Assembly (NCBI GenBank): GCA_938083505.1
Contig: CALKCF010000002.1
Coordinates: 128,001-192,000 of the forward strand
Direction: 5' to 3'
Source of the DNA: an uncultured archaeon
Lineage (GTDB): Archaea; Thermoproteota; Nitrososphaeria_A; Caldarchaeales; Wolframiiraptoraceae
DNA: 64,000 bases
Shown: piece after piece, positions 17,507 through 34,786 of the stretch
Position numbering within the stretch: the first letter of the stretch is position 1
Layout of the letters: every line of letters starts with the position of its first letter
Notes under the pieces: generated by a model
The model's database searches: none
Told to the model about the DNA's origin: nothing
What the model saw: the letters and a program-made list of their open reading frames with translations, nothing else
Position numbers and translations under genes: made by a program

Positions 17507-17684
17507 TCGCATCTACGCTATTTTTCATTGTTGAACGTCGCTTGCTCACATTATCAACTATTCCGTAATTGGTAGAGAATATAGAATATACTACGACATA
17601 ATAAGGTTCACGCGCAGACTCTTCCATCAGCATCCTTAATGATATTAATAACTACCTCAACCCGGCCCCGGGTTCAAAAAATCT

Positions 17685-17791
17685 TGGCGCCCTTCGGCGG
17701 GTGGGGTTTTCAACCCTCCCATGGCCGGGATTTGAACCCGGGTCCGGCGGGCGACAGCCGCCGATACTAGACCGGACTATACTACCAGGGC
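17685..17791 (-). tRNA. tRNA-Asp(GTC) with 29-nt BHB intron (17693-17721) at 68/69 in the 3' acceptor strand; CCA encoded
   Basis: GCCCTGG...CT GTC GC...CCGGG TTCAAAT CCCGG CCA|intron|GGGCG CCA; removal restores 7-bp acceptor stem. Confidence 0.9.
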
Positions 17792-17895
17792 TCCATCTGA
17801 ATATGGTAAAAAGAACCTCTATAAAGCAATTCTTAAAGTTTTCTAGAAAATTAAGGTAGCAAGGATTTTATCCCAGCATAAAAGGTTTTGGCTAC

Positions 17896-18432
17896 ATGGA
17901 GCCAAGGGAGCTTTTAGGTATAATAAAGGGAAGGAGATCTGTGAGAAGGTTCTTGGAGAAGAGGATTCCTGACGAGTGTCTGAAGCTCATAATGGAGGCG
18001 GGCATATGGGCTCCAAGCGGGAGCAACATACAGCCATGGCAGTTCATTCTCGTAAGAGACCCCATATTGATAAAGAAGATAAAGCTCATATCTCCAGGCC
18101 TATTTGGTAACCCTGATGCACTGATCGTAGCGTGTGTGGACAAGAATAGGTACGAGAAGGCTGGTAAGATAGGCTACACGCTGTCGCTCATGGACATATC
18201 CATGGCAACCCAGAACATGATGCTAATGGCGTACAGCCTCGGCATAGGGTCATGTCCGATAGCATCTTTCAACAAGCTAGCCGTGAGTGAAATTCTCGAG
18301 CTCCCGGATAGCTTTGAACCTGTCTTGATGATCAGTTTAGGGTATCCTGAAGAGTGGCCTCGTCCTCCAGAAAGGAGGCCTCTTAGTGAGGTGGTTTATG
18401 TAGATGGTTATGGAAAGCATTATAGAGGATGA
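17896..18432 (+). CDS. Nitroreductase family protein
   Basis: RRSVRRF, APSGSNIQPW, QNMMLMAYSLGIGSC. Confidence 0.92.
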   Translation: MEPRELLGIIKGRRSVRRFLEKRIPDECLKLIMEAGIWAPSGSNIQPWQFILVRDPILIKKIKLISPGLFGNPDALIVACVDKNRYEKAGKIGYTLSLMDISMATQNMMLMAYSLGIGSCPIASFNKLAVSEILELPDSFEPVLMISLGYPEEWPRPPERRPLSEVVYVDGYGKHYRG

Positions 18433-18709
18433 GCACTTCAAGCTCCTAACTTTTCTCATAGTTAGTGCAAGAGGTTGTGTTGATGAACCTTCGCTCTATG
18501 GACCGCTCAGGCTAATAGATGCTGCAGAGAGGTTAATAGGCCTGATGGACAAAATGGGAAAAGCTGACAAAAGGTTAATAGAAATAATGGAAACCATACG
18601 TGAAAGAAAGTTCAGCGTCATGAGTAATGAGGCGGAGTTTATCAAGTTGTTGGACGAACTTGTCTTAAGAATTTCAAGAATAATTAAAGAAACACAACTT
18701 ACAAGGTGA
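18410..18709 (+). CDS. Small helical protein (DUF6092-like)
   Basis: VSARGCVDEPSLYGPLRLIDAAERL motif. Confidence 0.7.
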   Translation: MESIIEDEHFKLLTFLIVSARGCVDEPSLYGPLRLIDAAERLIGLMDKMGKADKRLIEIMETIRERKFSVMSNEAEFIKLLDELVLRISRIIKETQLTR

Positions 18710-18844
18710 TCTCATCCCTACTAATCTCGAAAAACCTATCGTAGCATTTGCTCAGGGTTGAAAGTTCTTTTTAAAAACCTCTAATCTTTGTGAACTAACC
18801 TTCAGCGGACTTAAAAGGGTATCAGACATAAAAATGAAATTATA

Positions 18845-18919
18845 TAGCGGGGGATGGATTTGAACCATCGATCTCCGGGTTATGAGCCCGGCGGGTTATC
18901 CTGGCTACCCTACCCCGCT
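18845..18919 (-). tRNA. Initiator tRNA-Met(CAT), CCA not encoded
   Basis: AGCGGGG start (A1-U72), three G-C pairs in anticodon stem, CT CAT AA loop. Confidence 0.95.
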
Positions 18920-19023
18920 TCGGCACTAAGAATAACTTCGCCTAAATAAATACGTTAACGCACTAACTTTATATTTAATAATAAATAATATTTATTAATG
19001 TAAAAAAGACATTAATTAAAATC

Positions 19024-31814: not shown

Positions 31815-32117
31815 ATGGTGATGGGAAAGAACTTATCTTGCATTTGTGGTGCACCTATCGATATCTCGTCACTTATCATAGAAAAAATTGGAGAAGAAAA
31901 TTACAAAATAATATGTCCATCATCAAGATGTCCTTTACGTGAGTTAGGATTCGTAAAAGTAATTCACCACTCGAATCCAAAGTTTGAGGTCAAGTTTTCA
32001 AGAATGTTCAAGGACTGGAATGTATTGCTCGTCGGTAGAGAAAGTTGCGACAAGCTCCTACGTGAACTGCTGAAGCAAATCTCTTTGAGGCTCAAAAAGT
32101 TTTTATTTAACGTTTAA
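31815..32117 (+). CDS. Hypothetical Cys-containing protein
   Basis: Open 100-aa frame with CxC and CxxxxC pairs. Confidence 0.55.
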   Translation: MVMGKNLSCICGAPIDISSLIIEKIGEENYKIICPSSRCPLRELGFVKVIHHSNPKFEVKFSRMFKDWNVLLVGRESCDKLLRELLKQISLRLKKFLFNV

Positions 32118-32741
32118 ATAACGGCGTTAATCTATTTTGAAACTGTACAGCTTATATTCAAGAACACTTATGGGTTCTGTAATCAAAATAGTCTAATGGA
32201 CGACATTAAGTGTGTTCTCACAAATTACGGTGTCTCCATAAAAAACGTGGAGAAGATGCGGAGAACACGTCTGGAAGATAATCGCGGAGAAAGAGAATGT
32301 AGGTATCCTCGTCAATATCTCCTGCAAAAGTGTGCCGATAAAGGAGCTGCCCGCATTCCACTCAAGTGATCTTTCTAGGAACATCTCAATCTGCGAGGTT
32401 GAATTGTACAGCAGTGGTAACGATAGTTTTAATGAGTCAATTTAAGAGAAGGTTCGAATTAGGACTGTTTAGAGCTGGGGGAGTTTAATTAATAATTCTG
32501 CGGTTCATAACACTGGGACCTAAACGGTGCTTAATCTCATGTTTGAGAGTCTTTGTTTGATCCTTCTACGCAGATAACCTACTTGGGCGTCTTCATTAAT
32601 TTCGACCATAAATGAGTTTGGATGCATTCGAAGTTTTGCGCCCATAGAAGTACAACATAGAGGTAGAAGACTCGATGGGCTTTTCAGCCCTTTCCACTTC
32701 CTAGGGGGCGTTCTCCAGGCAGGGGAAGCATGTTAAACGAT

Positions 32742-34265
32742 AGGAGGTGATCCGGCCGCACGTTCCCGTACGGCCACCTTGTTACGACTTCTGCCTCCTC
32801 ACCAGGTCTGAGTTCGACCCAGCCAACGAGACTAAGCCTCACTCAGACCCAGCTCGGATGCAGCGACGGGCAGTGTGTGCAAGGAGCGGGGACGTATTCA
32901 CCGCCCGATGGTAACGGGCGGTTACTAGGGATTCCGCGTTCACGAGGGCGAGTTGCAACCCTCGATCCCAACTGAGGTGGGGTTTGGGGATTGGCTCCCC
33001 CTTTCGGGGTCGCAACCCATTGTCCCCACCATTGAACGTCGCGTGCGGCCCGGGGGATTCGGGGCATACTGACCTGCCGTGGCCCGCTCCTTCCTCCCCC
33101 TTTCGGGGGCAGTCCCCTCAGAGTGCCCGGCACCTTTCGGCCCGATGGCAACTGAGGGCGCGGGTCTCGTCCGTTGCCTGAATTAACAGGACACCTCACG
33201 GCACGCACTGGCGACGGCCATGCACCTCCTCTCAGCTCGTCCGGCAAGGCCTTCAACCTGGCCTTCATTCTGCTGTCGCCCCCGGTAAGGTCTCCAGGAG
33301 CCCTGTAACCGCACACGCGGCTCTTTCCGGCGTTGACTCCAATTAAGCCGCAACGTCCACCCCTTGTGGTGCTCCCCCGCCAATTCCTTTAAGTTTCAGC
33401 CTTGCGGCCGTACTCCCCAGGCGGCGGGCTTAATGGTTTCCCTTCGGCACCGCGCCAGCCCGTAGCTGGCGCGACACCTAGCCCGCATCGTTTACAGCTG
33501 GGACTACCGGGGTATCTAATCCCGATCGCTCCCCCAGCTTTCGTCCCTCACCGTCGGGCGTGTTCTGGCCGACCGCCTTCGCCACTGGTGGTCCTCCCGG
33601 GATCAGTGGATTTTACCCCTACCCCGGGAGTACCGTCGGCCTTTCCCACCCCCAAGCCCAGTAGTATTTTCCGCAGTCCGGCGGTTAAGCCGCCGGATTT
33701 AACGGAAAACACACTAGGCCGGCTACGGACGCTTTAAGCCCAGTAAAAGTCCCCACCACTCGCGGAGCGGGTATTACCGCGGCGGCTGACACCCGTCTTG
33801 CCCCCCGCTTATTCGCCCAGCTATTCACACTGGGCAAAAGCCACCACGAGGGTGGCACTCGGGGTGGCCTCGTCGCGCTTGCGCGCATTGCGAAGGTTTC
33901 GCGCCTGCTGCGCCCCGTAGGGCCTGGACTCTTGTCTCAGAGTCCATCTCCGGGCTCCCCCTCTCAGGGCCCGTACCGGTTATAGACTTGGTGGGCCGTT
34001 ACCCCACCAACTATCTGATCGGCCGCAGCCCCATCCCAAGGCTATGCTAGAAGCACCCTCCTAGCACACTTTCAGCGATGGGTCCTTCCAGAGCCCATCG
34101 CCTATGGGGGTTTATACCCCAGTTTCCCGGGGTTATCCCCCTCCTTGGGGTAGGTTGGCCACGTGTTACTGAGCAGTACGCCATGGCCGCAGAAACTGCG
34201 GCCATAGACTTGCATGGCTTAGTCCCACCCCGATAGCAGTGGGGTCCGGCAGGATCAACCGGAGT
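32742..34265 (-). rRNA. rrs: 16S rRNA (unlinked from 23S) with a 33-nt intron at 33292-33324
   Basis: TCCGGTTGATCCTGCCGG 5' end, GTCAGCCGCCGCGGTAA, ATTAGATACCC, AAGTCGTAACAAGG, GATCACCTCCT 3' end. Confidence 0.98.
33292..33324 (-). other. Short hairpin-type BHB intron in 16S rRNA (~E. coli position 978)
   Basis: CCGG-AA|A-GAGCC...GGCTC-CTGG-AG|A; removal restores CAACGCCGGAAACCTTACC. Confidence 0.88.
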
Positions 34266-34473
34266 CAGGCCTGGAGAAGTACGCCGCATCCCTAGGAATT
34301 TATGGGGGCTGAAAGCCCATGATTAGACCTTAAGCCATCCAATGCTTAGGGTCCTCATTTTGTTCCACGGCCAGGAGGCCGCCCTTACATCTAATGGGCT
34401 CCCACACCCTACGTGTTTGAGGGCGGTACCGCCGTCGAGCCGTGGAGTTCTGCACATTATTGTAATCGCTGCC

Positions 34474-34486
34474 TGTTTATATAGTT
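34474..34486 (-). promoter_or_regulatory. Probable TATA box of the 16S transcript
   Basis: TATATAAA on minus strand ~25-30 nt upstream of GC-rich leader. Confidence 0.5.
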
Positions 34487-34613
34487 TACATAGATTATGT
34501 TTAAAAGGCTTTTTTAGGGTTAAAGGGCTCCTTATACTCCTCAGGTTCTTAAGATACTAAAAAGTCAGACAACCCATGTATTTTTATCTCTTCGACGGCT
34601 ATTTTTTAGTGAA

Positions 34614-34708
34614 GGCCGCGGCTGGGATTCGAACCCAGGCAGCCGGCTCCACAGGCCGGAAGGCTAAACCGCTACCTCTGCGTCCACATTATAGTGGCCA
34701 CCGCGGCC
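34614..34708 (-). tRNA. tRNA-His(GTG) with encoded G-1 and 21-nt intron (34678-34698) at 9/10
   Basis: G-GCCGCGG TG|intron|AGGT AGCGGTTTA GCCT T CCGGC CT GTG GA GCCGG ... TTCGAAT CCCAG CCGCGGC C. Confidence 0.85.
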
Positions 34709-34786
34709 AACCGCGGCCGCTTATTCATTAGAACGAGCTTATCCTTAAGTGTTTCAGTCAGACTTAAAAAATTAAAGCATTGTAAT

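Follow-up and report, generated by a model that had tools for sequence, protein, structure and literature searches.

Complementary flanks accompany bulge-helix-bulge introns near the ends of archaeal tRNA genes and are candidate cis helpers of splicing

Archaeal transfer RNA (tRNA) genes can carry non-canonical introns with a bulge-helix-bulge (BHB) splice motif, and the examples in the accessible part of PMC4090602 range from position 20/21 to 59/60, with 3/4 as the extreme. In this study we analysed a stretch of 64,000 nucleotides (nt; hereafter the window) from an uncultured archaeon of the genus Candidatus (Ca.) Terraquivivens (Caldarchaeales), contig CALKCF010000002.1, positions 128,001 to 192,000, in which tRNA-Asp(GUC) and tRNA-His(GUG) are interrupted close to one end of the gene and are each accompanied by a short flank complementary to the tRNA body. 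Both introns are members of the non-canonical BHB class, which they resemble in their shortness, their 4-bp central helix and two 3-nt bulges, their location away from 37/38 and the presence of EndA, RtcB and archease. However, the sites considered here (68/69, 5/6, 6/7 and 8/9 to 10/11) are not among the examples in that part of PMC4090602, and flank pairing with the tRNA body is not described there. A literature search that left most subscription papers outside its reach returned no description of such pairing either.

In the split tRNAs of Nanoarchaeum, Caldivirga, Aeropyrum and Staphylothermus (PMC3218864, PMC4090602), flank pairing is needed for splicing and holds the pieces, and a helper flank in the present genes may, by analogy, work like the split-tRNA clamp. 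However, the leader and trailer of split tRNAs build the BHB between two transcripts and are removed by EndA, whereas the genes described here are contiguous, with one transcript and a complete intron hairpin; their BHB forms between exon and intron, and the flanks pair with exon sequence outside it. The permuted tRNAs of Thermofilum pendens and Cyanidioschyzon (PMC3218864, PMC3728597) are comparable in that terminal extensions pair and splicing must precede RNase P and RNase Z, as would also be the case here. In contrast to them, our genes have the normal gene order, no circular intermediate and a flank that lies outside the BHB. Flanks that occupy a competing strand for a time and are afterwards lost are also familiar from the leader helices of precursor ribosomal RNA (pre-rRNA) and from the upstream flank of the hepatitis delta virus (HDV) ribozyme, although this likeness is an analogy only, with no sequence or family relation. 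On the basis of sequence comparison and folding models, we consider it fairly probable that the flanks are cis-acting RNA helpers for the splicing of BHB introns within ~10 nt of a tRNA end, which would free the splice signal and hold the terminal exon.

The genome of the window is referred to below as G000 and its relatives within the genus as G001, G004, G005 and G006, and L numbers denote loci. ARAGORN and Rfam found five tRNA genes and a stand-alone archaeal 16S gene in the window, and both called tRNA-Asp and tRNA-His too short. When every excision register was enumerated, one BHB per gene remained. In tRNA-Asp (minus strand, as is tRNA-His) 68/69 was the sole register yielding a BHB, with a central helix CGGC/GCCG (4/4), bulges CA|U and AA|G, two outer and three inner pairs, and the motif strictly follows the archaeal form (4-bp central helix, two 3-nt bulges, flanking helices). 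The 29-nt intron (17693..17721) separates exon 1 (positions 1-68; 17722..17791, consistent with intron-less orthologs) from an exon 2 of 8 nt (positions 69-76 including the encoded CCA; 17685..17692). The BHB takes up tRNA positions 61-71, and the trailer (17667..17678) is an exact 12-nt complement of positions 48-59, which form the 5' strand and loop of the T-arm (17731..17742). In G000 only, the match extends to 16/17 through one mismatch and then four pairs (17662..17666). The 68/69 intron and the identical 12-nt trailer were present in 7/7 Terraquivivens genomes, in which the spacer is variable and the next 20 nt match at 0-6/20, and the trailer was absent from 23 intron-less Asp orthologs of the order. 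A TATA-like box, presumably the promoter element, lies 46 nt upstream of G1 (17832..17837), and the distance is 44-47 nt in six genus genomes.

In tRNA-His the best register is 9/10 and the BHB has a relaxed form, in which the central helix is 3/4 with one G.A and is joined by three outer and four inner pairs; the motif takes up tRNA positions 1-12. Exon 1 runs from G-1 (34708) to G9 (34699..34708), the 21-nt intron (34678..34698) is absent in G004 and in other genera, and exon 2 comprises positions 10-73 (34614..34677). The leader contains a copy of the acceptor 5' strand (34709..34718) with 10 possible pairs (one G.U) to positions 64-73 (34623-34614), giving a duplex of -18.3 kcal/mol, and the spacing of a TATA-like box (34744..34748) would place this copy within the predicted transcript. 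The leader was intact in 5/5 intron-bearing orthologs, and other genera had neither the intron nor the leader copy. In both tRNA-Asp and tRNA-His, excision after the second bulge base gives the tRNA of the intron-less orthologs, and the His gene of G004 lacks exactly the intron. Estimated from genome counts, the chance of finding either exact motif within 40 nt is ~1e-4, and no comparable flank was detected at the intron-less iMet, Arg and Ser genes of the window, where flank duplexes reached just -2.4 to -9.1 kcal/mol. These results bear out the first-pass annotation of the window, which had reported that both BHBs are built from strands that the cloverleaf needs, that each flank complements the displaced partner strand and that the intron-less genes lack such flanks.

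The survey of 68/69 Asp genes, like the phylum pattern for 5' introns used below, was set up without the flank as a requirement. A metagenome pattern for insertion at 68/69 returned 82 loci, which together with the genus loci gave 71 intron-bearing genes, among them genes from Hadarchaeota, Bathyarchaeia and two more families of Thermoproteota; removal of similar trailers left 34 non-redundant 68/69 Asp loci. A trailer was called significant when its pairing with the T-arm or with the acceptor 5' strand exceeded that of 97.5% of its shuffled versions. We observed a significant trailer in 30/34 of these loci versus 3/50 intron-less Asp genes, and the median trailer duplex was -16.0 kcal/mol versus -6.85 kcal/mol. 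The trailers follow three designs, namely the anti-T-arm trailer of the window, a spare copy of the acceptor 3' strand, which is the mirror image of the leader copy, and a leader-trailer clamp (L353/L391), so that both partners freed by the 68/69 BHB serve as trailer targets. One locus (L380:4600-4700, plus strand, and ~3450-3600, minus strand) contains an orphan intron-bearing Asp 3' fragment with its trailer and, back to back with it, a complete Asp gene from which both the 68/69 intron and the trailer are absent; the orphan fragment was kept among the 34 loci and left out of the covariation count. The anti-T-loop 10-mer was rejected as a diagnostic: among the at least 120 matches listed, three were 68/69 genes and most of the others were explained by chance or by the anticodon arm of an adjacent tRNA. 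Behind the intron-less Glu(CUC) gene of G000 there is a weak anti-T match, which is not conserved in six relatives and was taken as chance. Some intron-less tRNAs of unrelated archaea and bacteria (L145, L147, L155) carry 13-16-nt trailers antisense to the T-arm.

At the 5' end, a leader copy was found in 19/19 genes with introns at 5/6, 6/7, 8/9, 9/10 or 10/11 (His, Cys, Glu, Asp and Ser; about seven lineage-isotype units), versus ~4/221 other tRNAs, and each of the 19 copies matches its own isotype. The first-pass annotation had proposed that the flanks should be conserved together with the introns and be rarer at intron-less tRNAs, and both expectations were confirmed at either end of the gene. 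A third case in G000, outside the window, is tRNA-Cys(GCA) (G000:C4:95860-95962, L281), which was missed by ARAGORN and RF00005 and combines an 8/9 intron with a leader copy; 7/7 Cys genes with the intron, which come from two families, have the Cys copy, and 0/23 intron-less ones have it intact. Within the genus, the intact copy tracks the intron in every contrast: the Asp gene of G005, alone in having an additional 5/6 intron, also has a leader copy; the Glu gene of G006, alone in having a 10/11 intron, has a copy that is lacking in six intron-less orthologs; and the intron-less Cys gene of G001 has just a 5/7 look-alike. The His, Cys and Glu introns are in differing registers. In addition, the phylum pattern added two more families in which Ser genes have an 8/9 intron, each of these genes with a leader copy (one via a wobble change). 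An Asp 6/7 intron with a leader copy occurs in one further family. Promoter spacing agrees with the leaders being transcribed. The helper reading is also favoured by tRNA-Phe (G000:C8 ~4397-4492), since its 59/60 T-loop intron leaves the T-stem intact as the outer helix of the BHB and the gene has no flank.

Several further Asp genes deserve mention beside these. L414, L429, L322 and L380 share a leader able to pair with positions 64-75, and in some of them the T-stem 5' strand would be taken up by the BHB of a variable-loop intron; this arrangement may represent a further helper type or a relic. L394 and L374 have at least three introns (6/7, D-arm and 68/69), with leader copy and trailer both present. 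L348 has an apparently intron-less gene preceded by a copy of the Asp acceptor 5' strand that is locked in a UUCG hairpin of its own.

The leader copies could alternatively be read as the true first exon, with the second copy lying within a nested micro-intron. The tandem copies do permit a formal excision of 10-14 nt, and acceptor sequences are palindromic, but an inner helix is missing from such an excision, the Cys copy has any of T, A, G or C where U8 would lie, and use of the G004 His copy would yield an A1.C72 mismatch. It is moreover the second copy that intron-less orthologs match, and we regard this explanation as scarcely credible.

If, as the helper reading has it, the flanks act by pairing, pairing should be preserved through sequence change, and covariation, which the first-pass annotation had proposed to survey, was indeed observed, though in few independent events. 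The pair formed by position 49 is C-G in 20 trailers and U-A in five, while G65, the mature partner of position 49, is unchanged; these changes perhaps represent two or three independent events. The spare-strand trailers depart from the tRNA's own end and pair with their own leader base at -1 in 9/12 cases, using four pair types. Of the signs that RNA pairing is under selection, this match to the leader at -1 is the strongest.

The covariation also bears on whether the flanks are neutral relics with no RNA role, left over from the insertion or duplication that brought the intron, such as displaced gene ends or collapsed cassettes. Insertion relics like that of the C. subterraneum tRNA-Thr locus, where an insertion left a 5' tRNA fragment upstream (Sugahara 2012, PMC3293823), and att duplications likewise place partial copies of tRNA ends beside an intron-bearing gene. 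A LAGLIDADG gene lies directly behind the 68/69 Asp 3' end and trailer in six loci (L328, L331, L365, L375, L378, L387), and in four (L328, L378, L390, L349) an intron-less 3'-end copy is found 0.9-2.4 kb downstream, three of these copies beginning in or beside the T-loop. The His leader of G004, which survives without an intron, would also fit such an origin. However, the helper copies, 7-12 nt long and situated within ~30 nt of the gene, show conservation and covariation, and one type is inverted: the anti-T-arm trailer is an inverted copy and not a displaced end, and it is invariant where its neighbours, at ~75-85% genus-level identity, have drifted. The spare-strand trailers deviate from the old 3' end in a way that fits their own leader, none of the four displaced true ends has a strong trailer, and the leader copy of the G005 Asp gene left the TATA-to-G1 spacing at 46 nt. 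At the Terraquivivens Asp locus itself, neither a mobility gene nor a distant direct repeat of the tRNA end was found within 1.5 kb downstream, where the neighbours are FrhB-like and nitroreductase genes. Relics can explain the source of some copies but leave the inverted trailer, the invariance of that trailer and the covariation unaccounted for, and as a full account we consider them quite unlikely. The same loci give no support to the suggestion of the first-pass annotation that introns at the 3' end could block integrase attachment (att) sites: in several of them the 68/69 intron and trailer ride on an inserted LAGLIDADG cassette whose junction is in the T-loop upstream of the intron. Together with the downstream 3'-end copies, this implies that the intron came by insertion at the tRNA 3' end there and did not block it.

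The possible contribution of the flanks was evaluated by nearest-neighbour folding. Absolute BHB probabilities were low in all genes, controls included, and only differences were used; the Leu(CAG) control, which was in the wrong register, was left out of the comparison of BHB cost. The modelled cost of forming the BHB was lower with the real flank in 37/38 genes, with a median gain of 2.2 kcal/mol, and whole-precursor z-scores (-1.15 and -1.62) were not significant. After cutting, the 3' piece was bound at -9.9 kcal/mol with the trailers versus -5.4 kcal/mol without them, whereas leader copies gave no consistent tether gain (His, -6.5 kcal/mol with the leader versus -10.2 kcal/mol for the exon only). 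Spliced Asp returned to the cloverleaf at a cost of 0.7.

A simpler role to be weighed is one in which the BHB forms unaided and the flank serves solely to keep the terminal exon of 5-10 nt on the tRNA body at high temperature, from cleavage until ligation. The trailer adds ~4.5 kcal/mol to binding of the cut 3' piece versus ~2 kcal/mol to BHB formation, and the L353/L391 clamp gives no help to the BHB (gain -0.8) yet tethers. In the models, trailers contribute more to tethering the last exon (8 nt) than to refolding. On the other hand, the leader copies lower the BHB cost in 9/9 cases in spite of their inconsistent tether gain, and nearly all flanks aim at strands freed by the BHB, while any partner would serve as a tether. 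Tethering as the whole function is, in our view, unlikely. The first-pass annotation had described the flanks as a cis version of strand displacement; conservation and covariation uphold selection for pairing with the strand that the BHB displaces, but displacement is only a candidate mechanism: the gains were 1.0 and 2.0 kcal/mol for Asp and His, and tethering fits the 3' trailers better.

A number of results weigh against the helper reading. The gains just mentioned are those over shuffled flanks, and they were equalled by 5/30 (Asp) and 7/40 (His) shuffles. Two canonical 37/38 introns had BHB costs of 7.7 and 10.8, as high or higher in the same model; with gains so small and canonical introns as costly, the model does not establish that the flank is necessary. 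In unconstrained folds the flank helices appear and the full BHB does not. In spliced His the leader still outcompetes the true 5' strand by ~8.6 kcal/mol in the two-dimensional model, a possible trap, and tertiary folding or trimming would have to remove the leader. The first 3 nt of the Asp trailer sit in a T6 tract (17681-17676), and the T5-T7 run of some genomes could stop transcription ahead of the trailer. Flanks also occur without an end-proximal intron (G004 His, L414, L429, L432, L380, L407), the leader-copy exceptions being mostly Asp genes (L414, L429 with a variable-loop intron, L432 and L380). In G004, the closest relative (84% over the locus), the His gene has kept its leader with one pair-breaking change, which fits recent intron loss and is at the same time a flank without an intron. 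Because the genes are related, P-values and counts overstate independence. Finally, seven RNA runs contained just 5% of the words, and the contigs from four of them belonged to other organisms and left the His gene uncovered, so that these runs carry no information either way.

Taking both sides together, we regard the flank as a real, recurrent and probably functional element. The strands that make up an end-proximal BHB come from the acceptor or T stem, and cleavage of the motif yields a terminal exon of 5-10 nt. We propose that the flank would be transcribed along with the pre-tRNA, as suggested by promoter spacing for leaders and by presumed read-through for trailers. From the complementarity we infer that it pairs in the cell with the strand that lacks its partner, a leader copy with the acceptor 3' strand and a trailer with the T-arm 5' strand or the acceptor 5' strand. 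The BHB could then form and be cut by the two-subunit EndA. Both EndA subunits, RtcB, archease and RNase P RNA are encoded, with the archease gene inside the window (60667-61098, plus strand). The same helix would hold the short terminal piece until ligation by RtcB/archease, a modelled step that is strongest for 3' trailers, and the cloverleaf would re-form as the flank is trimmed away. Since the flank would be trimmed last, end processing should follow splicing at these genes. The flank itself can have originated by duplication or as a mobile-cassette relic, and its persistence would reflect selection on pairing.

A checkpoint or regulatory role would mean that the flank, rather than forming or holding the splice site, shields the precursor from RNase P/Z or CCA processing, or tunes termination and decay, as long as splicing is incomplete. 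The T-arm, which both end-processing enzymes (RNase P and RNase Z) read, is opened by the trailer, and the trailer overlaps a T-tract. Methanopyrus normally trims the ends before splicing (PMC3695527), so these genes may need a block. However, interruption of the acceptor stem by itself makes a poor substrate, an acceptor-like helix is restored rather than hidden by the leader copy, and a T-tract is lacking at many trailers outside Terraquivivens. A checkpoint as the main function appears highly unlikely to us.

Outside the two tRNA genes, the 16S gene (minus strand) contains a ~33-nt insertion relative to other archaea (window ~33291-33323), possibly a small rRNA intron, which the RNA contigs of other organisms skip. 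Genes for Tyr, Leu(GAG) and Ile(CAU) tRNAs were not located by searches of the whole G000 and may be unassembled or heavily interrupted. In G006, lone 3' fragments of Gly and Arg tRNA genes (L248, L249) are probably integration relics.

A bioRxiv study (10.64898/2026.10.13.758758) names intron arrival as the central open problem and notes that detection is weaker near gene ends. If the helper reading is true, it would account for the survival of introns at sites where splice motif and cloverleaf compete for the same bases and just 5-10 nt are left for the last exon. Archaeal tRNA splicing would then include a folding and tethering step encoded in RNA, with splicing predicted before end trimming, opposite to the order in Methanopyrus (PMC3695527). 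A general rule seems to us evenly poised between holding and failing: that a BHB intron within ~10 nt of either end persists only with a disposable cis helper, which has arisen more than once, with no fewer than four geometries (leader copy, anti-T-arm trailer, spare 3' acceptor strand and leader-trailer clamp), reverses the processing order and can travel with the intron on homing-endonuclease cassettes. In annotation, the flanks would also help to flag genes of which standard tools call just a part, as ARAGORN does with Asp and His, and they bear on how tRNA introns are gained and which of them are kept.

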